The notes: generated from the letters alone by a model not told the origin. DNA of 64,000 bases from Thermoplasmata archaeon (GCA_030037955.1 JASHPT010000012.1:2429-66428); one strand, 5' to 3'. Shown: positions 13,551-61,888, counted from the stretch's first letter. A program made the numbers and translations.

Positions 13551-14704
13551 GTCACGACCTCGGCGAGCCGCCCCTCGGCGAGAGCGGTTCGGATCTCGAT
13601 CGCGATCCGGCGTCCGGAGCTCATCGGTCCCCTCCAGAGCGCGTTGCCGTACGGGTGGCCGAGGGAGAGGTGGATGTTGGTGCCGCCGCCGATCCGCGCG
13701 GCGACGTCGAAGACGAAGGCCTTTCCGTCCCGGTCGATGCAGGTCTGGAGCGTGAACGGACCCAGAATCCCGGGAGGTGCCCGGCTCCGGGTGACCTCGA
13801 CGAACCGCTCCCCGTAGTCGAAGATCTCTTCCAGCAGCGATTCGCGCACGGTCAGGGTCCCGTGACCGACGACCGTGTAGTGCGGGATCGCATGCGAGCC
13901 CCGGATCTCGAGCTGCTGGGCCGCCGGCAATCGGACCAGGCCGTCCAGCGAACTTTCCCGTCGCTCGTCCACTCCGAGCAGCTCGAGGCCGTCCTCCCGG
14001 GGCACCAGGGGGGAGAAGAAGAAATTGAAATTGAACACCGGGCCCAGCACGTACTGCTCGATCCGCGCCTGCTCGAGGTCCGCCGCGGCGATCGTACCGG
14101 CGGCGATCAGCGAGTCGCTCTTCCGCTGGTACTCCTCGAAGCTCGCGGCGGTGAAGAAGCCGCGTTCCAGCCGGCGGGTGGCGTGCGGAAGCTTGACCAT
14201 CGCGAGCGACTCGATCTCCGGCGGCGACGGAATCCGCTGCGGGGTCGGGATCCCGGCGGCGGCCAGGAGGGCATAGTAGTTGTCCCGCTCGGTGCGCTCC
14301 TCGATCCTCAGGAGATTCCGGGAGCCGACCAGCGGGACACGGAAGGAGTCTTCGAGCACGTCCAGCGAAACGTAGGAGCTCAGGGCCCGGTTCGGAACCA
14401 GGAGGACCCCGTGGTCCCGAAGCCGCGCCTGGCTCTCCGGGGTTGCGGCGTCCGCGAACTTCGGAAAGCTCCAGACCTCGTCGACGCAGCCTCGCGTCAC
14501 GTGGCCGGCCGCATCGCGGTGGGCCCGATAGTAGACCGAGTAGGTACGGTCCCGGCCCTTCTGCGCGAGTACGAGGGTGCGAAAGCCCTCTTCGACCGCG
14601 CCATCGGCGATGTCCAGGGCGGAGTGGGAACCGATCGCGCCGATGACCGGCGGGTTCGGATACGCGTGGGCCAGAGACTGGAGTTCCGACCGCGGGAGGA
14701 CCAT
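13547..14704 (-). CDS. purP: 5-formaminoimidazole-4-carboxamide ribonucleotide synthetase PurP (archaeal ATP-grasp FAICAR synthetase)
   Basis: 385-aa ATP-grasp protein with strong full-length resemblance to archaeal PurP (MVLPRSELQSLAHAYPNPPVIGAIGSHSALDIADGA...). A CTTAAG box lies 25-30 nt upstream of the ATG. Confidence 0.8.
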   Translation of the reverse strand: MVLPRSELQSLAHAYPNPPVIGAIGSHSALDIADGAVEEGFRTLVLAQKGRDRTYSVYYRAHRDAAGHVTRGCVDEVWSFPKFADAATPESQARLRDHGVLLVPNRALSSYVSLDVLEDSFRVPLVGSRNLLRIEERTERDNYYALLAAAGIPTPQRIPSPPEIESLAMVKLPHATRRLERGFFTAASFEEYQRKSDSLIAAGTIAAADLEQARIEQYVLGPVFNFNFFFSPLVPREDGLELLGVDERRESSLDGLVRLPAAQQLEIRGSHAIPHYTVVGHGTLTVRESLLEEIFDYGERFVEVTRSRAPPGILGPFTLQTCIDRDGKAFVFDVAARIGGGTNIHLSLGHPYGNALWRGPMSSGRRIAIEIRTALAEGRLAEVVT

Positions 14705-14718
14705 TGGGGGTCCGGACC

Positions 14719-16914
14719 TTACAGGAGCTTAAGCGCTCGGGCCACGCGCTCCGGCGTCAGCGGGAGTTCGAAGACTCGCGTACCGGTCGCATCCGCGACG
14801 GCGTTGGCAACGGCCGCAGGCACCGGAATGATCGGCGGCTCGCCGATCCCTTTGGCGCCGAACGGCCCGGCACCGGCAAACCCCTCGATCAGGTCGACGT
14901 GGATCGGCGGCGCGTCCCGGATCCGGGGCAGCCGGTAGTCCAGGAGTCCGGGGTTCAAGAGCCGGCCGTCGGGCGTCCACATCATCTCCTCGGACAGCGC
15001 CGTGCCCAGCCCCATCACGACCCCGCCCTCGACCTGCGCCTCGACCGCCGGTCGGTCCACGGCGGTGCCGACGTCCTGGAAGGCGGCGTAGCGTACGATG
15101 CCGATGTGGCCGGTCTCCCGGTCCACGGCGACCTCGACCAGATGGACGGAGGCGGCGAAGTCGTTGTACGGATAGACCGTCCCCTCCAGCACCCGCGACG
15201 CATCGACCTTCTTCTCCGCCCCGTAATGCTTCCCGTGAGCCTCGAGGCCCCCGGCGGCCCGCTCCGCCGGCGTCAGCAGGTCGACCAGCTTCTGCCGGCG
15301 ACGGCCCGAGACGACCAGGACCTGCCCGTTCTTCGTCTCCAAGCGGACCTGCGGCGCCCCGACCCGAGTCGCCAGCGTCTTCTCGAGCGCTCGGGCCGCT
15401 TTCTCCACGGCCTGCCCCAGGGCCGCCAGGGTCCGGCTCCCGTAGACCCCGGAATCGAACGGCGCCGTGGCCGTGTCCCCGTACTGGATCCGGATCGCAT
15501 TCGCGGGGAGACCCAGCACCCGCTGCGCCACCACCGAGAGGCCGCGAACGACACTCCCGTTGCCGATCTCCCGCTCTCCCTCGAGGATCACGAGGCCATC
15601 CGGCTGGAGGAACAGGCGGGCCTCTCCGCCGGCTCCCACGCCCGTCGACCAGAAGCCACAGGCGACGCCGATGCCGTGCCCGGCCGGAATTCCGGTTCTC
15701 CAGACGGCGGCCGTGCGGGCCGCGGCCTCGAGGCCGGCTTCGAGGCCGAAGGGACCGACCGGCTGGTCGTAGGCGGTTCGGTCGTTCTCGCGCCACGCAT
15801 GGATCTTTCGAAACTCGATGGGGTCGGCGCCGAGGCGACGTGCCAGGCCGTCGATATGCGACTCGAGGGCGAAGACGGATTGCGGTGCGAACGGGGCCCG
15901 GTGGGGCCCGAACGGCGGCTTGTTCGTTCGGAGGGCGTAGCCCTCGATGTCGTAGGCCTCGGTGCGGTAGGGTCCCAGCAGGAAGCCAATCGAGTACCCG
16001 ACGGCAAAGTCCCGGCCGGGGAGGGACGCGCCGGTGTCCAGGAGCAGGCGCACACGACGTGCAACGATCCGGCCGCGGGCCACGGCCGTGTCGAGTCGGA
16101 TGACTGCGGGCAGGGTCGTGCGGCCGAGTTCGAACTCCTCGGCGTAGGTCAGGGCCAATTTGACCGGGCGCCCGCTCGCGACCGCCAGAAGGAGGGCGTA
16201 CGGTTCGATGAACGCCGACCCCTTGCCCCCGAAGCCCCCGCCGACCCAGCTCCCCTCGACGAGGAGCTTGGCCTCGGGAATTCCCAGGACGGAGGCTACG
16301 TCTTCCCGCAGTCCGAAGGGTGTCTGGGTCGAGGTGCGGATACAGAACGTGCCGTCCCGGATCTCGCCGAGGCAGGCGTGCGGTTCGAGCGCCACCTGAT
16401 GGACGCCGCTGGTACGATACGTCTCCGAGTGGACGAGCTCCGCGGTCCGGAACTTTCCGTCCACATCCCCGTGACGGGCATGCACGTGGCCCACCACATG
16501 CGGGTCATCCGCCGCCGCCGCGGAAGGCCACTCTGGAAAGATGTCCTCGATGCGGGCGTCGACCCGAAGGCTCTCGACCTCCACGGCAACGGCGGCGGCG
16601 GCCCGACGAGCCTGCGCGAGGGTCTCGGCCGCCACGGCGGCGACCGGTTCGCCCCGATAGCGGATCTCCTGGAGAGGGAACACGGGCCGCTCCACCTCGA
16701 GCGCGGCTTTCGGGAGCAGGGTGCGCAGGTCGTCCGGGCCGACCACGGCGACCACTCCGGGCATCTTGCGGGCGCCGGCCAGGTCCATGTGCACGATCCG
16801 GCCGTGAGCCACCGGCGAGCGGACCAGAGCGGCCCACAGCATCCCGGGCGCCTCGAGGTCGGTGCCGTACTCGAGCGCCCCACGGGCCTTCGGCTCCGCG
16901 TCGGAGCGCATCAT
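14719..16914 (-). CDS. xanthine dehydrogenase family molybdopterin-binding large subunit (CoxL-like)
   Basis: The true start is the MMRSDAEPKARGALEYGTDLEAPGMLWAALVRSPVAHGRIVHMD... methionines, which overlap the coxS stop as ATGA. Aldehyde oxidase/XDH a/b-hammerhead plus molybdopterin-binding domains. The substrate is not determinable from sequence. Confidence 0.85.
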   Translation of the reverse strand: MMRSDAEPKARGALEYGTDLEAPGMLWAALVRSPVAHGRIVHMDLAGARKMPGVVAVVGPDDLRTLLPKAALEVERPVFPLQEIRYRGEPVAAVAAETLAQARRAAAAVAVEVESLRVDARIEDIFPEWPSAAAADDPHVVGHVHARHGDVDGKFRTAELVHSETYRTSGVHQVALEPHACLGEIRDGTFCIRTSTQTPFGLREDVASVLGIPEAKLLVEGSWVGGGFGGKGSAFIEPYALLLAVASGRPVKLALTYAEEFELGRTTLPAVIRLDTAVARGRIVARRVRLLLDTGASLPGRDFAVGYSIGFLLGPYRTEAYDIEGYALRTNKPPFGPHRAPFAPQSVFALESHIDGLARRLGADPIEFRKIHAWRENDRTAYDQPVGPFGLEAGLEAAARTAAVWRTGIPAGHGIGVACGFWSTGVGAGGEARLFLQPDGLVILEGEREIGNGSVVRGLSVVAQRVLGLPANAIRIQYGDTATAPFDSGVYGSRTLAALGQAVEKAARALEKTLATRVGAPQVRLETKNGQVLVVSGRRRQKLVDLLTPAERAAGGLEAHGKHYGAEKKVDASRVLEGTVYPYNDFAASVHLVEVAVDRETGHIGIVRYAAFQDVGTAVDRPAVEAQVEGGVVMGLGTALSEEMMWTPDGRLLNPGLLDYRLPRIRDAPPIHVDLIEGFAGAGPFGAKGIGEPPIIPVPAAVANAVADATGTRVFELPLTPERVARALKLL

Positions 16915-17387
16915 TGAACGGCCTTCCGCGCCAAGGCCACCGCCCGCTCGATCGCCCGGTAGCCGGTGCACCGGCACAGGTTCCCTTCCAGGCCGTCGAC
17001 AAGCGACTCCACGTCCGGTGGGCTTTTGCTCCGGCCGAGCTGGGCCGCGAGCGCCACGACAAATCCGGGCGTGCAATAGCCACACTGCACGGCCCCGGCC
17101 TCGGCAAAGGCCTTGATGACTGCCTGACCGATCGGTACCGCCGCGACGCCCTCGATGGTGGTCACGGGCTCGTCACCCACCTCTCGGGAGAGGAGCAGGC
17201 AGGAGAGCGTCGGCTCGCCGCCCACGAGCACCGTGCAGGCGCCGCAGTCCCCGGTCCGGCAGCCCTCCTTCGTGCCCTTGAGGCCGGCGCGCCAGCGGAG
17301 CGTATCGAGCAGCCGCTCCGCGTCCGGGACCGACGCAAAGCGTCGGCTCTGACCGTTGATGTGGAGCGCCAGCGCCGCGTCGGTCAT
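16911..17387 (-). CDS. (2Fe-2S)-binding small subunit of molybdenum hydroxylase (CoxS-like)
   Basis: 158 aa with two 2Fe-2S motifs: CRTGDCGAC and CGYCTPG...CRCTGY. It is the C-terminal part of the fused 648-aa ORF on the track. Confidence 0.85.
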   Translation of the reverse strand: MTDAALALHINGQSRRFASVPDAERLLDTLRWRAGLKGTKEGCRTGDCGACTVLVGGEPTLSCLLLSREVGDEPVTTIEGVAAVPIGQAVIKAFAEAGAVQCGYCTPGFVVALAAQLGRSKSPPDVESLVDGLEGNLCRCTGYRAIERAVALARKAVQ

Positions 17388-18310
17388 CGAGACGGCTTCC
17401 GGGCCGCCGCGGGCCGCGGCATGCGGTCGATCGTGGTCTGCAGGGCCCGCCGTACCATGACCGCCACCAATCGGCGACGATACGACTCGGTGGCGCGCTT
17501 GTCGGAAACGAACTCCGCCCGCCGGGCCGCCTCCTGAGCCGCGAGCTCCTGCTCCAGGTGGGTCGGTCTGGCCGACCGCAGCACGGCCTCCGCCTCGCTC
17601 AGTCGACGGGCCCGGGGCTGAAGCCCACCCAGGGCGATACGCCAATGCGGCGCGTCCGGGAGGTACGCGGTCGCGACACCGACCTGAGAGATGTCGTTCA
17701 CGGGCTGCACCCGTTGCCACATGTAGGTCGACGGAGCCGCCGAGGGAAAGATCAGCGATTCGATGAGCTCTGCCGGTCCCAGGTTCGTTTTTCTCGACTC
17801 CTGCAGCACCAGATCGACCGGATGTTCCCGAACACCGCTCGGTCCGAGGATGCGAACGCGTGCGTCCAGCGCGATCAGCATCGGAAGCAGGTCGGAGGCA
17901 GGAGAGCAGCGGCCCACGTTGCCCCCGAGCGTCGCCCGGGCCCTGAGCGCGGGACTTCCGACGTCCCGGATCGCCTCCCAAAGGCCGGGCAACTGCTGCT
18001 GCACACGCCGATCGAGCTCGAGGGTTCGCAGCGGAAGCGTGCTCCCGACGACGAGACTGGATCCCTCCCATCGCAGGTACCGCCACGGCATCTTCCGGAG
18101 CGAGAGTACCTGCCGCGGAGAGGCCCGGGCCTGATCGATGTCGATCAGCAAGTCGGTTCCACCCCCCAGAACCGACATCTGGCCGGCCGACGCGCCCGCC
18201 AGCAGCCTCACAGCTTCCTCCGGAGTGGCCGGCTGGACCAGCTGAAAGCTCACGCGCACTCCGACCGGGCGGCGATTGATAGCCTTTCGGTGCGCGACGA
18301 GGCTCGACAT
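17384..18310 (-). CDS. FAD-binding subunit of molybdenum hydroxylase (CoxM-like)
   Basis: LGGGTDLL FAD-binding motif and CO dehydrogenase flavoprotein fold. ATGA overlap with coxS. The real start may be an internal GTG. Confidence 0.8.
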   Translation of the reverse strand: MSSLVAHRKAINRRPVGVRVSFQLVQPATPEEAVRLLAGASAGQMSVLGGGTDLLIDIDQARASPRQVLSLRKMPWRYLRWEGSSLVVGSTLPLRTLELDRRVQQQLPGLWEAIRDVGSPALRARATLGGNVGRCSPASDLLPMLIALDARVRILGPSGVREHPVDLVLQESRKTNLGPAELIESLIFPSAAPSTYMWQRVQPVNDISQVGVATAYLPDAPHWRIALGGLQPRARRLSEAEAVLRSARPTHLEQELAAQEAARRAEFVSDKRATESYRRRLVAVMVRRALQTTIDRMPRPAAARKPSR

Positions 18311-18860
18311 GTACTTTTATCCGCCAGACCGGCTTCGCTCCCCGTTCGTAATGCCGTTCGAGTTGACACTTCGTTACAGCACCCCACTCACGCCGCTCCC
18401 GGACGTCGACGAAGTGCTCCAGGAATTCCTCCGGATGATCGGCTACTTGCCGGAAAGTTACGATACGCGCGGCGGCACGGGGCCGGTCGAGAGCCGGGTG
18501 GCGTACCGACTGGTCCGGGACTGCCTGATCCGCGCCCCGACACGACCGTGGTACATCGATGAGATCGTTGCCGTCCTCAAGACGTCCAAACCGACGGTCT
18601 ACCGGCACATCAACAAGCTCAAGTCGCTCGACCTGCTCGAAGAGGTCGGCGGCTCCGCCGACGGCAAGGGCCGCAAGGGCTACCGACTCCGGTACGGGAA
18701 CCTCGCCCGAGCGTGGGACTTCACGGAAGCGAACGCGCAGAACGCGCTCAAGCGGTACCGGGAGACCGTGAATCACCTCCAGACCCTGCTCGACCGCGCG
18801 GAAACCCCGCCCTCGGTCGTGACCAAGGGCTCGGCGAGGGCCAAGGGAATCCTTCAATAA
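18309..18860 (+). CDS. winged-helix (ArsR/TrmB-like) transcriptional regulator, divergent from the Mo-hydroxylase operon
   Basis: HTH segment PWYIDEIVAVLKTSKPTVYRHINKLKSLDLLEEV. The start is uncertain (ATG candidates at 18309, 18354 or 18435). Confidence 0.6.
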   Translation: MYFYPPDRLRSPFVMPFELTLRYSTPLTPLPDVDEVLQEFLRMIGYLPESYDTRGGTGPVESRVAYRLVRDCLIRAPTRPWYIDEIVAVLKTSKPTVYRHINKLKSLDLLEEVGGSADGKGRKGYRLRYGNLARAWDFTEANAQNALKRYRETVNHLQTLLDRAETPPSVVTKGSARAKGILQ

Positions 18861-18890: not shown

Positions 18891-19199
18891 ATGAGCGCAA
18901 CGTCGGCGCCAGGGTCGGCGAAGAAGAATGCGATCGCGCTGACCGTGGGCTCGAAGATCCGCGTGCGGTCGGCCAGCAGCGAGAACGAGTCGCTCGTATC
19001 GAACGGCGCGTTCCGGGGCCTTGTCTCTATCGGCGGCGACAGTTCGCTCGCCGTGGAGCTCGACGGCACGGTGGCGGAGGAGAAGGGGCGCATCCGATTG
19101 ATCCCACTCAACGCCCTGCTGGCCCTCGACGTCCTCGAGGCGGCGAAGGCCGAAGAGGAGAAGCGCGCCGACCCGGCGAGCCCCGGCTACTTTGGCTGA
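18891..19199 (+). CDS. small hypothetical protein (102 aa)
   Basis: ATG preceded by ggag ~10 nt upstream. No recognisable domain. Confidence 0.4.
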   Translation: MSATSAPGSAKKNAIALTVGSKIRVRSASSENESLVSNGAFRGLVSIGGDSSLAVELDGTVAEEKGRIRLIPLNALLALDVLEAAKAEEEKRADPASPGYFG

Positions 19200-19218: not shown

Positions 19219-19325
19219 CGGGCTTGGTGGGAGTTTCGCCGCCCCGGTCGCGGCGACGGGCGGATTCGAACCCACGTCTTCGGCTTCGAAGGCCGAAAGG
19301 ATAGTCCAGACTACCCTACAAGCCC
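19219..19325 (-). tRNA. tRNA-Arg (anticodon TCG) with ~32-nt insertion separating the two T-stem halves (putative non-canonical intron near T-loop position 59-61)
   Basis: On the minus strand the acceptor halves are GGGCTTG (19325..19319) and CAAGCCC (19226..19220). U8-A9 are present, and the D-stem is GGGT/ATCC. The anticodon stem is TCGGC/GCCGA with loop CTTCGAA, giving anticodon TCG. The T-stem 5' half GTGGG and T-loop TTCGAAT are followed by about 32 nt (CCGCCCGTCGCCGCGACCGGGGCGGCGAAACT, which folds as a CGCCGC/GCGGCG hairpin). Only then comes the complementary T-stem 3' half CCCAC. The fold was done by eye only. Confidence 0.6.
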
Positions 19326-19387
19326 GCGGGCCGTCGGACGCGCGGCCGCCTATAAGGGGGTTCCCGGCGGCGGCTCCGCCGGTCGGC

Positions 19388-22300
19388 TCAGAGCTCGTCG
19401 GGCGGTTCGTCGACGGCCACCGGTTCCTGGAACGATTCGAGCGTGGTCTGCGCCAGGCTGCCGGGGAAGAGCGTCGCGAGGGACGTTTCGAGGAGCTGGA
19501 TCCGTTGTCGCAAGTACGGAGGGACGCCGGTCGTCGCCGCCAGCCGCTGGGAGAGACCGAGGTACTTCCGCACCGACGCCTCGAACACGGTGGGCTGGAG
19601 CAGTCCGTCGCACGGAGCCCCGGCGTGGGGCCGGGCGGTGCAGCGACCCGAGAGCGGCGGTCGGCGATACGAGGTGCCGCAGGTTTTGCAGCGGAACTTC
19701 TGGGTCGCGTAGCTCTTGAGATTCCCCATCAGGTCGGGGAGAAAGTGGGCGTTCAGCACCAACGAGACGGCCTCTCCGACGTCGACCGCGCGGATCTCGG
19801 AGGCGACCCGCAGGGATTGCTCGACGATGCGGTCCATCGACGGTGCTTCCCGGTACGCGGACCGGACCGGGCCCCCGGCGATGTCGCTCGTGTCGTGCGT
19901 GAACCCGTACCCGTGCAACGCCCGCTCGGTCCCGACCCGGGCGCCGACGGTCTCGATGAGGGCCTGCACCTCCTTGGCCGCCCCGCCCCGGGCCGCCGCC
20001 CGGTAGAACTCGACGGGATACCGGAACGCGATGTCGACGTTGTGTGCCTCGCTGTCGACCTCGGTGGCATTGAGCCGCGTCGTGAGCACGAGCGGCTTGT
20101 CCATCAACGCGCCCCGGCTCTCCGGGAGGAACGCCCGGGAGAAGTTGAGCAGCGCATCGAGGAGCAGGGTGACCGAGTCCTCGTCCCCGTCACAGTTTCG
20201 TCGCTTCGCGGCATGGAAGACCGGGTGCGCGAAGCATCCTTCCGCCGACGTGTAGCCGATCAGACGGCCAACGACGGCTCCCGAGGTGTGTGGCGCCAGC
20301 GCCGCGACGAGATGCCCGAGCAGGTCCTCGGGCCGGCTCGCCCGGTAGTACGATTCGAGGCCGTAGAGATGGGCCAACTCATCGTCGAGGAACTGGGCGA
20401 CCTGGGTGAGGTAGGTCCCGCAGGAGCGCGAGACGATGAGGTCGTGCGGCTCGAGTTCCAGCAGCTGGTCCGGGTCCGTGAGCGGCGCCCCGCGGTAGTC
20501 CTGGGTGTACCCGAGCGACCGGGCGCGTTCCACCGATAGCCCCACTTCTCGGGGCCGGAAATGCGTGAGGGGGAGGTCGGTGAGGTCGAACCGCGCCGTT
20601 CCGTCCTGATAGACCGAGACCCCGTGCGCCGCCCGCAGGATTCCCTTCTCGATCGGCTCCGGAACCTTGCCGCTGGAGAGGAGGCCCTTGACTCCCTTGA
20701 CGTTCGTCGGGGGACGCCGGAGCTGGAGCTGCTCGACCGCCTGGGCCCAAATCGGCGCCACGGAGACCTCCTGGGTGGTCACCTGGCCGGTCGCGCGCGT
20801 ATGGGCGCCGCACACGCATCGGGGCCAGACCGTCGACCGATGACAGGTGGGACACTCGCGTACTCCGAGCTGCGTCGGGAGGCCCCGGCCCTGACTGCGA
20901 CGCGCGGCCTCGGGAATCGAGCGCTGGGCGCCGCCGGCGTCTCCGACCGGGAAGAGCACGTGCACGTTGGGGCTCATCTTCCGCTGCCGGGCCTTCTCCG
21001 GCCGGCCCACTCGGGCTCCGATGCGGGAGGGACTCCGCGGAGGCACCCGGACCCCGGCCAGCCGGCTGACGTAGGCCATCGGGTCGATGTCGACCGGTTC
21101 GACCGGTACGACGCGGAGCAATCGGGGGCTGCCCGGGACCAGTCCGAGGGCAGCCACCAGCGCCTGGGACAGCTCCCCCTCGCCTTGGAGCGTCCCGTCG
21201 GCCCGGCGGGTATGAAGAAATCCGAGGCGAACCAGCACGTCGCGGACCTCCGCGTCGAACGGTACCTCGAGCGCACCGGCGACCCAGCGCCCCTCGCGTT
21301 CGACGTAGTCCGACAGGGCGCGTATCTCGCCCGAGGTGAGGTCGTGCCAGAACAAGAGGAAGCGCGGATGGAGGGGGACGTTCGAGGCCCGGGCGGTCTC
21401 GACCGCCTCGGCGTAGCTGGGGCGGAAGGCCTTGTCATCCAGCGGAACGCCCGCGGCCCGCAACTCCTCGAGATGCCACTCGAGCGAGTAGGTGCCCGGC
21501 GCGAGGGGCCGGTTGTTCTCGAGAAACTCGCCGAAGGGAACCAGCAGGCACCCCAGGTCGATGATGCGTCGGATCCTCGGGAGCAGCTCCTCGGCCCGGT
21601 CCCGGTCATGTACGGCTGTAAGGCTCCCGTCGTCCAGCTCGACGATGGGACCCTCGATCGTGTCACAGAGCGTCATCGCGGTCGCCTTGCCCGGATATTC
21701 GATCTTGACCTGGGTGCCCACCGCGACGAAATTTCGGAGCACGACCATCGTCGCCGGATTGACGGCGCAGGACGCCAGGCCGGCCGTTCGCGATCGGCCG
21801 TACAGGAGTCGGAAACCCCCCGGTCGATGCGGATAGGCGAGGACCGGACGGCCGCCGACCGCCTCCGAGAGATACTTCGGCCCCTGCGTGCCGCCGTTGT
21901 CGTCGGCGGTGGCGTGCCGACCCAGCTCGCCCAGGAACTCCCATCCGTCCAAGCCGAGCCGCTGCACGATCTTGCGCAGCTTCGGTGCTTTCTGGCAGAG
22001 ACCTTCGGCGATGACCAGGCAGGCACCGCCCCGCAGCCCGTTCGTCGGCACGCGCGGGAGGTTCCGGAAGGCGCTGACCTCGAGGTCTCCCTCGGTCGAC
22101 TCGCCCGAGATGCAGACCGGTACGTTCTCCACGACCGTCGAGACCTCCTCGGCGGTGGGCACGTACTGCAGGTGCTGGGAATGCTTGTACAGCGGGATCT
22201 CCTCGACGTAGCGCTCGACCTCCCCCGGCAAGGGTCGATACGGCGTGAGTCCCAGCTCTCGACGGGCGACGTCTGCGAGGAGGACGGACATCGCCTGGGC

Positions 22301-22738
22301 CGTTCCGCCCGCGGCGCGAATCGGGCCGGCGTAGAACAGCTCGATGTAGGCGGAGCCTCCCACCGGTCGGAGGTGTACCTCGGCCAGACCCTCGAGGGGG
22401 GCGACCAGGATGCCTTCGGTGAGAATCGCCAGCCCCACGCGCAGCGCAGCGTCCAGCCGGGCCTCGACCGACGCGCCCCGACGAGAATCGCGAACCATCG
22501 ACCGGACCATTGCGATCGCTACCTCGTCGCGCGGAAGGTCCCGCGCGAGGACCCGGATCTCCTCCGCGACCCCCTCGACCGGCAGGTGCGCCAGCAGTTT
22601 CTCGACTCGGGCGGCCATGTCCTGGGCCGGTGGGATCTCGGGATGGTCCTCGGGGTCGATCCCCGCAGCCCGGGCCGAGCGAGCTACTGCGTAGGCAGCC
22701 TCGATCGACCGATCGAGACGCTCAAAGTATGACGACAC
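19388..22738 (-). CDS. DNA polymerase II (PolD) large subunit DP2
   Basis: 1116 aa. The N-terminus MSSYFERLDRSIEAAYAVAR and the C-terminal zinc-finger CKTCGTSYRRPPLSGRCTARPHAGAPCDGLL are typical of DP2. A CTTAAG box lies ~30 nt upstream of the ATG. Confidence 0.9.
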   Translation of the reverse strand: MSSYFERLDRSIEAAYAVARSARAAGIDPEDHPEIPPAQDMAARVEKLLAHLPVEGVAEEIRVLARDLPRDEVAIAMVRSMVRDSRRGASVEARLDAALRVGLAILTEGILVAPLEGLAEVHLRPVGGSAYIELFYAGPIRAAGGTAQAMSVLLADVARRELGLTPYRPLPGEVERYVEEIPLYKHSQHLQYVPTAEEVSTVVENVPVCISGESTEGDLEVSAFRNLPRVPTNGLRGGACLVIAEGLCQKAPKLRKIVQRLGLDGWEFLGELGRHATADDNGGTQGPKYLSEAVGGRPVLAYPHRPGGFRLLYGRSRTAGLASCAVNPATMVVLRNFVAVGTQVKIEYPGKATAMTLCDTIEGPIVELDDGSLTAVHDRDRAEELLPRIRRIIDLGCLLVPFGEFLENNRPLAPGTYSLEWHLEELRAAGVPLDDKAFRPSYAEAVETARASNVPLHPRFLLFWHDLTSGEIRALSDYVEREGRWVAGALEVPFDAEVRDVLVRLGFLHTRRADGTLQGEGELSQALVAALGLVPGSPRLLRVVPVEPVDIDPMAYVSRLAGVRVPPRSPSRIGARVGRPEKARQRKMSPNVHVLFPVGDAGGAQRSIPEAARRSQGRGLPTQLGVRECPTCHRSTVWPRCVCGAHTRATGQVTTQEVSVAPIWAQAVEQLQLRRPPTNVKGVKGLLSSGKVPEPIEKGILRAAHGVSVYQDGTARFDLTDLPLTHFRPREVGLSVERARSLGYTQDYRGAPLTDPDQLLELEPHDLIVSRSCGTYLTQVAQFLDDELAHLYGLESYYRASRPEDLLGHLVAALAPHTSGAVVGRLIGYTSAEGCFAHPVFHAAKRRNCDGDEDSVTLLLDALLNFSRAFLPESRGALMDKPLVLTTRLNATEVDSEAHNVDIAFRYPVEFYRAAARGGAAKEVQALIETVGARVGTERALHGYGFTHDTSDIAGGPVRSAYREAPSMDRIVEQSLRVASEIRAVDVGEAVSLVLNAHFLPDLMGNLKSYATQKFRCKTCGTSYRRPPLSGRCTARPHAGAPCDGLLQPTVFEASVRKYLGLSQRLAATTGVPPYLRQRIQLLETSLATLFPGSLAQTTLESFQEPVAVDEPPDEL

Positions 22739-61568: not shown

Positions 61569-61888
61569 CCGCTAGGCTAGACCGGGGGGTTGGGCGTCCC
61601 CTTTTACACCGAAACCGTCCTCAGCGGGGGTGACAGGCAGGAGCGACGCGCACCGAGGGAGTCCGTCTCGTTCGTCTCCGTCGACGCTCTGTTCCACTGG
61701 GCCGCGGGCACCGCGACGAGCGCTCGGAGGAGCGCCCTAGCGGTTACCCATCACGGGAACCGGGTCAGGTCCTGACGGGAGCAGCCTTACCGTGACCCGA
61801 CGACGCTGGTGGGGCGACGGGGCTGAGGAGCGGACGGGGTCTCCGGACCCTCCCGGTGCGCGGCCACCCTGCCGGCCTAGCACGGCGA
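61569..61888 (+). ncRNA. signal recognition particle RNA (7S / SRP RNA), archaeal type
   Basis: Begins ~25 nt downstream of the TATA ctatatat. The 5' CGCUAGGCUAGACCGGGGGG...ACACCGAAACCG is Alu-domain-like. Conserved helix-8 sequence GGUCAGGUCC-UGAC-GGGAGCAGCC at ~61762-61786. The 3' GCCGGCCUAGCACGG pairs with the 5' end. Overlapping plus-strand ORFs are spurious. Confidence 0.65.

Follow-up and report, generated by a model that had tools for sequence, protein, structure and literature searches.

A predicted BHB-spliced intron between positions 59 and 60 of tRNA-Arg(TCG) in a GC-rich clade of Thermoplasmata

A 107-nt gene for pre-tRNA-Arg(TCG) lies on the minus strand at positions 19219..19325 of the 64-kb stretch of Thermoplasmata DNA analysed here, which is referred to as the window, and the two halves of its T-stem are separated by a 32-nt insertion between tRNA positions 59 and 60. 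The reading that we favour, at a probability of about 0.88, is that a GC-rich Thermoplasmata lineage makes its tRNA-Arg(UCG) from this functional, single-locus gene, that the insertion is an intron spliced via a BHB motif, and that the intron itself has no function. BHB introns at site 59/60 are already known from ARMAN-2; what appears to be new is a strict one that is present clade-wide in Thermoplasmata.

The interrupted gene and its splicing motif

Read from 19325 to 19219, the minus strand consists of GGGCTTGTAGGGTAGTCTGGACTATCCTTTCGGCCTTCGAAGCCGAAGACGTGGGTTCGAA (exon 1), TCCGCCCGTCGCCGCGACCGGGGCGGCGAAAC (intron) and TCCCACCAAGCCCG (exon 2), with the layout GGGCTTG-TA-GGGT...ATCC/TCCT-T-TCGGC-CTTCGAA-GCCGA-AGAC-GTGGG-TTCGAA, 32 nt, T-CCCAC-CAAGCCC-G. 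Exon 1 (19265..19325, minus strand; tRNA positions 1-59) contains the acceptor 5' strand, the D arm, the anticodon arm, the variable region, the T-stem strand GTGGG and the T-loop nucleotides TTCGAA. Exon 2 (19219..19232, minus strand; tRNA positions 60-73) contains T60, the T-stem 3' strand CCCAC, the acceptor 3' strand CAAGCCC and the discriminator base, which is the G at 19219; the 3' CCA is absent from the gene. The anticodon TCG occupies 19287..19289 (minus strand) inside the loop CTTCGAA, which is uninterrupted, so that the gene carries no canonical intron at 37/38. By direct reading, the mature sequence retains U8, A14, G18G19, A20, U33, T54-C56, A58 and G73.

ARAGORN called no tRNA in the raw window or in the isolated gene, even with its intron search switched on. 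The Rfam tRNA model gave 31.8 bits at 19251-19325 (gathering score 29), and this weak match is a forced one, where intron bases are drawn into T-stem and acceptor positions, both stems are broken and mismatches are flagged. When the 32 nt after the T-loop were deleted, and only then, ARAGORN called a clean tRNA-Arg(tcg) of 75 nt, in which the acceptor stem has 7 bp, the T-stem 5 bp (GTGGG/CCCAC) and the T-loop 7 nt (TTCGAAT). The original prediction, which was made from this stretch of DNA alone, had described an insertion of about 32 nt separating the T-stem halves at 19219-19325, canonical acceptor, D and anticodon arms, and the anticodon TCG; the sequence and the ARAGORN call on the spliced form agree with it in all of these respects. 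The antisense motif to which it had pointed on the plus strand, GGATTCGAACCCAC, is present at 19262-19275.

Other ARAGORN calls were rejected. With the option -i, tRNAs containing 'introns' of 130-1700 nt were called in GC-rich DNA and were judged spurious, and a 101-nt 'tRNA-Leu(aag)' called in one locus of the related clade is a false positive.

The minimum-energy fold of the 107-nt precursor has a free energy of −53.8 kcal/mol and contains a strict hBHBh' motif, and the centroid structure is the same. This energy corresponds to z = −3.95 relative to 200 shuffled sequences (mean −40.0 ± 3.5), none of which was as stable. The complete motif extends over 19227..19275 (minus strand) and is found in the minimum-energy fold, in the RNAalifold consensus and in the covariation described below. 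Helix h is the 5-bp T-stem, in which GTGGG (19271-19275) pairs with CCCAC (19227-19231). The 4-bp helix H is formed between T-loop nucleotides 54-57, TTCG (19267-19270), and CGAA of the intron (19235-19238), and helix h' is an intron helix, in which CCGCCC (19258-19263) pairs with GGGCGG (19239-19244). The 5' bulge is AA/T (19264-19266) and the 3' bulge is AC/T (19232-19234), all on the minus strand, where the slashes mark the predicted cuts. The geometry is that of a 3-4-3 hBHBh' motif, a 4-bp helix with a 3-nt bulge on each strand; in the window neither a bulge nor a flanking helix is missing, and the motif is none of the relaxed BHB variants (hBH, HBh', BHL), which need an EndA of broad specificity, but the strict form, which euryarchaeal endonucleases of narrow specificity accept. 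Helix h' is capped by a GTCG/CGAC hairpin, which is specific to the window sequence.

A non-canonical intron near positions 59-61 with a 'BHB-like' structure had been predicted. The intron itself is upheld at 59/60, where excision restores tRNA-Arg(TCG) and the motif is conserved with compensatory changes. As for the wording, the BHB stands but the implied looseness does not, since the motif is a strict 3-4-3 hBHBh'. The internal CGCCGC/GCGGCG helix that had also been proposed is absent from the minimum-energy, centroid and listed suboptimal folds and from the consensus. Instead, GGGCGG pairs with the CCGCCC at the 5' side of the intron and CGAA pairs with the UUCG of the T-loop, and a CGCCGC/GCGGCG helix would compete with both H and h'.

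Four deletion registers yield an identical mature tRNA, and the register must therefore be picked by structure. In canonical introns, anticodon nucleotides 34-35 lie within the 4-bp helix, nucleotides 36-37 lie in the bulge and the 5' splice site is 37/38 (Yoshihisa 2014, PMC4090602), a geometry that places the cut after the second nucleotide of each bulge. By this analogy, exon 1 would end with A59 (19265), the intron would extend over 19233..19264 (minus strand), a length in keeping with homologous introns of 22-32 nt, and exon 2 would start with U60 (19232). The order in the T-loop would then be U54 U55 C56 G57 A58 A59, intron, U60, and the exact phosphodiester bond is assigned on the same geometric basis; shifting both cuts upstream by one nucleotide also leaves a plausible T-loop, UUCGACU, in the ARAGORN deletion test. 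The 32-nt extent of the insert is as originally predicted, but its register is not, as the BHB geometry starts the intron one base further upstream.

A SPLITS-like scan, in which BHB excision is combined with ARAGORN, was applied to approximately 1.03 Mb of related DNA. The scan encountered 9,697 chance BHB-like motifs, and only the tRNA-Arg gene gave a tRNA after excision, with the spliced tRNA-Arg recovered in about 123 related loci, which is the result expected from the intron reading. No other interrupted tRNA was found in these ~1.03 Mb of clade loci, all of which share one neighbourhood, and the scan is therefore hardly informative about other parts of the genome. In the 64-kb window, no other tRNA-like signal was detected with Rfam (E <= 10).

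Conservation among relatives and at the locus

One genome per GTDB species was searched with a broad pattern of anticodon arm and T-loop, which returned many bacterial tRNA-Arg matches. Among the genome matches listed, at least 22 MAGs labelled 'Thermoplasmata archaeon' have the same tRNA-Arg with a 23-32-nt insert at the same site, and the insert is absent in Methanomassiliicoccales, Thermoplasmatales (Acidiplasma, E-plasma), Halobacteriales and Halovenus. JGI metagenomes were searched with a family-specific pattern that allowed 0-30 nt between TTCRAA and TCCCNNCAAGCCCG; 119 of the 120 matches listed carry a 22-30-nt insert, representing 103 distinct introns. The sole intron-less match among the 120 has a different D-arm (GGCTAGTTCGGATAGAC) and probably belongs to another lineage sharing the acceptor stem. 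This D-arm resembles a Halobacteriales tRNA-Arg(TCG).

Intron length in the homologues ranges from 22 to 32 nt and the loop sequences vary freely. An identical tRNA-Arg gene is present beside the gene for the 102-aa protein of the window, described below, in four NCBI MAG assemblies and one Logan assembly, and homologues sit in contigs of up to 1.2 Mb. The GC content of the clade loci is 64-76% (median 70.7%), and that of the window is uniform at 67-72%. A haloarchaeal origin, suggested by a GC content of 70%, was rejected, since the homologues are 'Thermoplasmata archaeon' MAGs and the genes of Halobacteriales and Halovenus lack the intron. The host lineage is an abundant, GC-rich, soil- and peat-dwelling clade of Thermoplasmata, and the 59/60 intron is fixed across this clade.

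The tRNA-Arg gene follows, on the same strand and after 63 nt, the gene for the PolD large subunit DP2 (19388-22738, minus strand; 1116 aa with three Pfam DP2 domains), whose end is at 19388. On the opposite side, a 102-aa ORF with no Pfam match (18891-19199, plus strand) is convergent on the tRNA-Arg gene and encodes a real, clade-specific small protein. About 135 of 147 related loci have this ORF next to the tRNA in the same orientation, with the C-terminal ...GYF(G/R) before the stop conserved. In 104 of the 147, both neighbours are found within 400 nt and in this arrangement; most of the others are truncated contigs. The C-terminal 400 aa of DP2 are 63-77% identical to those of the window (107 loci). 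The conserved neighbours and this degree of DP2 identity indicate that the locus is orthologous and that the intron has persisted over deep divergence. The simplest history would be one gain of the intron in the clade ancestor followed by vertical inheritance.

A promoter-like block lies upstream of the gene at 19351..19365 (minus strand), where TTATA (19351-19355) is centred ~28 nt upstream of tRNA +1 and GGGAAC (19360-19365) is BRE-like. In 115 distinct upstream sequences from DNA of 70% GC, an A/T box is kept at −30..−25; it reads TTATA in the window and AAATA in most loci. Position −36 is a conserved A and position −1 an invariant C in the same sequences. The conserved A/T island suggests that this block may be an archaeal TATA/BRE promoter that starts transcription near the mature 5' end. 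No oligo-T terminator is evident downstream of the tRNA-Arg gene.

Elsewhere in the window, an archaeal signal recognition particle RNA (Rfam RF01857, 132 bits, full length) is located at 61570-61882 on the plus strand and is the only other structured RNA found within the 64 kb. A CoxS/CoxM/CoxL-like molybdenum hydroxylase cluster with an HTH_20 regulator is located at ~14700-18860 (Pfam); its matches in the window ORFs and in matching MAG contigs are Fer2_2, FAD_binding_5/CO_deh_flav_C and Ald_Xan_dh_C/MoCoBD.

The conservation of the splicing motif was evaluated in alignments of the homologues. From 28 full-length homologues, RNAalifold returned the hBHBh' motif with no structural hint. In 23 distinct full-length sequences, the paired fraction of cells is 95.9%, compared with 35-54% in slid controls, where the pairing partners were displaced by 1-3 columns, and 10 pairs are changed on both sides. 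A larger alignment of 122 distinct sequences starts at the anticodon loop and runs to the 3' end. Of its cells, 98.3% are paired (33-55% in slid controls), and compensatory changes are found at 8 of 15 pairs, in 110 cells. None of 500 shuffles of this alignment matched the observed values on any measure.

All six h' pairs covary in the 122 sequences, for example among C-G, G-C, U-A and U-G. Covariation extends to two T-stem pairs whose strands are separated by the intron: 49:65 changes from C-G to G-C and 50:64 from U-A to C-G or G-C. Helix h, the 5-bp T-stem, is paired in 100% of cells and helix h' (at least 6 bp) in 95.9%, again in the 122 sequences. The full 4-bp helix H is present in 121 of the 122 and the strict bulges are present in 116; the only variation in H is between U-A and U-G pairs, as the invariant T-loop supplies its 5' strand. 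The exons are near-invariant across homologues and the 3' bulge is nearly always AC/U. The intron is free to vary in its length, its apical loop and its first nucleotide, which is the third nucleotide of the 5' bulge. This conservation pattern fits a structure that would be under selection only for recognition and cutting.

A few members of the family depart slightly from the motif. Six of the 122 sequences have a 5' bulge of 4 nt, because their first h' pair is a C.A or C.C mismatch, and in three family sequences UC/U or AG/U replaces AC/U in the 3' bulge. These minor variants could serve as natural probes of endonuclease tolerance.

Proposed maturation and alternative readings

In archaeal tRNA splicing, EndA cuts the bulges of the BHB and an RtcB-type ligase joins the exons. 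The tRNA-Arg would be transcribed from its own TATA/BRE-like promoter ~28 nt upstream, and its precursor folds, as the computed structures and the covariation show, into a cloverleaf with an extended T-arm, where h stacks on H and then on h', with a 3-nt bulge on each strand. By analogy with known systems, EndA would recognise the strict 3-4-3 motif independently of the remaining tRNA and would cut after the second nucleotide of each bulge. An RtcB-type ligase would then join A59 to U60, which would restore the 7-nt T-loop UUCGAAU and the T-stem. The predicted spliced junction in tRNA-Arg(UCG) is GGGUUCGAA-UCCCAC, and the predicted sequence from the junction through the mature 3' end is ...GACGUGGGUUCGAA-UCCCACCAAGCCCG(CCA), where CCA would be added after splicing.

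Because U54, U55, C56 and G57 are paired in helix H, the T-loop/D-loop elbow cannot form before the intron is removed. In terms of the folded model, splicing probably precedes the elbow-dependent steps of maturation (RNase P, RNase Z, CCA addition and T-loop modifications), or these steps tolerate the extended T-arm.

The splicing enzymes were sought in the window and its relatives. With the EndA of M. jannaschii, verified against PDB 1A79, and that of A. fulgidus as tblastn queries, no EndA match was found in the window or in ~1.7 Mb of related loci, and the ligase of the lineage was not found in the window or the related loci. Protein searches led from the M. jannaschii EndA through a GC-rich two-unit homologue to 1,708 relatives. 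Among those listed, the relatives labelled Thermoplasmata or Methanomassiliicoccales are all of the alpha'2 type, 340-397 aa long and built of two N+C domain pairs. Some alpha'2 relatives are found on contigs of 67-70% GC, a composition like that of the clade loci, and these are candidates for the splicing endonuclease of the clade, with none placed in an intron-bearing assembly or linked to an intron-bearing genome. Examples of 351-355 aa on Thermoplasmata-like contigs of 67-70% GC include that of GCA_964451065.1 contig CAYVGY010000001.1. On these contigs, endA is flanked by genes for PKD-domain proteins and an AlaX-like gene, to which CAYVGY010000001.1 adds purL/purQ.

Cluster II Euryarchaeota encode alpha'2 EndA exclusively (PMC5829648), and this statement would extend to the present lineage. 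The homodimeric EndA of Ferroplasma, also of Thermoplasmata, is reported to cleave minimal BHB substrates that lack a mature domain (PMC8707768), and alpha4 and alpha2 EndA are described as needing the strict 3-4-3 hBHBh' motif (PMC3239211). The strict bulges in 116 of the 122 aligned sequences are what a strict-motif EndA would be expected to impose.

The intron most likely has no function of its own, as can be argued from the absence of conserved sequence beyond the needs of splicing. It would be kept because its precise loss is rare and because any mutation that disrupted the BHB would abolish the function of a tRNA that is presumably alone in reading CGA. By direct reading, neither the C box (RUGAUGA) nor the D box (CUGA) of a box C/D guide RNA occurs in the 32-nt intron, whereas archaeal tRNA-Trp introns carry a C/D-box guide.

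Alternatively, the intron may be retained for a positive function, as a shield against integration or as a gate in maturation, although we regard this as unlikely. Its fixation across the clade over deep divergence speaks for a function, but the rarity of precise loss explains the fixation equally well, and the intron is conserved only where splicing needs it. For a maturation gate, the block of elbow formation by helix H is visible in the structure. For an integration shield, the 3' halves of tRNA genes are classical targets of integration. The idea that an intron shields a tRNA from integration is attributed to Randau and Soll in PMC4033280. Against such a shield, the window contains no integrase and no repeated tRNA 3' half beyond chance, and no viral contig of IMG/VR contains the spliced sequence from the T-loop to the 3' end. 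The broader proposition that the 'canonical-position-only' rule of alpha'2-EndA Euryarchaeota no longer binds this Thermoplasmata order, with either further non-canonically interrupted tRNA genes hidden in its genomes or the 59/60 intron selected as a maturation gate or integration shield, is a speculative one, to which we assign a low probability.

It is very improbable that the 32 nt stay in the mature tRNA as an extra arm growing from the T-loop. The hairpin is stable, but what is conserved is the exact 3-4-3 geometry (strict bulges in 116/122, full H in 121/122), which would be pointless in a structural arm, and the length and sequence of the arm drift freely. In addition, helix H would sequester the universally required U54-G57 and block the elbow between the D-loop and the T-loop.

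That the insertion has killed the gene, leaving a tRNA pseudogene with an incidental hairpin, is barely credible. The failure of ARAGORN on the raw sequence and the Rfam score of only 31.8 bits would be in line with a pseudogene. However, the same insert site recurs in more than 140 independent loci with near-invariant exons and a conserved promoter block, and compensatory changes that preserve the BHB and the T-stem spanning the insert are not expected of a dead gene; instead of broken stems and lost constraint, covariation of the stems is seen across the insert. Although the sources are metagenome-assembled genomes, an artefact of assembly or binning, or contamination with Crenarchaeote sequence, is a negligible prospect, since the sequence is identical in five independent assemblies, has homologues in contigs of up to 1.2 Mb and lies, in a window of uniform GC content, next to a DP2 gene of PolD, which Crenarchaeota are not known to possess.

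Relation to known archaeal introns and consequences

ARMAN-2 (Ca. Micrarchaeum acidiphilum) has a strict hBHBh' intron at 59/60 in pre-tRNA-Pro(GGG) (Fujishima et al. 2011, PMC3239211) and a relaxed hBH intron at 59/60 in pre-tRNA-Cys, and this site overlaps major insertion sites of (alpha-beta)2-bearing archaea (PMC3239211). The present intron is like that of tRNA-Pro(GGG) in its site, its strict 3-4-3 type, its length of tens of nucleotides and, presumably, its excision by EndA. It differs in the tRNA, which is Arg-UCG, and in the host, which belongs to Thermoplasmata, whereas ARMAN-2 belongs to DPANN and has a broad-specificity epsilon2 enzyme. Furthermore, a single intron is fixed across a large clade here, whereas ARMAN-2 has many introns, with 56% of its tRNA genes disrupted.

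The non-canonical introns of archaea with (alpha-beta)2 EndA (PMC8450103) are likewise BHB-dependent, spliced by proteins and located outside 37/38. In those archaea, however, introns are many, with several per gene, and often relaxed (hBH, HBh', BHL), and EndA has a specificity loop, whereas the motif here is strict and no other intron was seen in ~64 kb of unique genome. The canonical 37/38 introns of Euryarchaeota, such as those of Haloferax tRNA-Trp and tRNA-Met, share the same 3-4-3 motif and the same recognition logic with the present intron, which is located in the T-loop and not in the anticodon loop. The pylT genes of Ca. Methanohalarchaeum thermophilum HMET1 carry BHB introns as well (PMC9071458). 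With one or two introns per gene, they are another euryarchaeal BHB case from beyond the classical intron-rich phyla; the tRNA and the lineage differ from those of the present tRNA-Arg.

The original prediction had also stated that such introns are uncommon in PolD-encoding lineages, to which Thaumarchaeota and ARMAN-2 belong. The statement holds for Euryarchaeota according to reviews (PMC4090602, PMC4033280) and fails for ARMAN-2 (PMC3239211) and for Thaumarchaeota, in which 107 non-canonical introns are known (PMC8450103). Euryarchaeota have been described with a single BHB intron at the canonical position, and alpha4 and alpha2 EndA have been associated with 37/38 introns only (PMC4090602). 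Korarchaeum has been described as the only alpha2-bearing archaeon with non-canonical introns (PMC4033280). In the literature covered, which is incomplete, no published description of a 59/60 intron in Thermoplasmata was found.

For the annotation of these genomes, the intron has direct consequences. In its default mode, ARAGORN misses the tRNA-Arg in the window, and in 89 of the 147 related loci it mis-calls a 70-80-nt tRNA with a wrong 3' half and broken T and acceptor stems. Because finders in bacterial mode miss or mis-call the gene, MAGs of the soil and peat clade will appear to have no tRNA-Arg(UCG) or a defective one. If it is true that further tRNAs are interrupted, the current tRNA counts for the MAGs of the clade would be too low.

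A 59/60 intron that is stable across a clade of Thermoplasmata would be a counter-example to the statements of the reviews (PMC4090602, PMC4033280). The coevolution argument of the field often merges the non-canonical position with the relaxed motif; since the motif is strict here, a non-canonical position can be separated from a relaxed motif. The pre-tRNA-Arg may thus provide a natural substrate with which to ask whether an EndA of narrow specificity cuts a strict BHB in the T-arm of a full pre-tRNA, and it would reveal how a precursor without an elbow is handled by RNase P, RNase Z and the CCA-adding enzyme.
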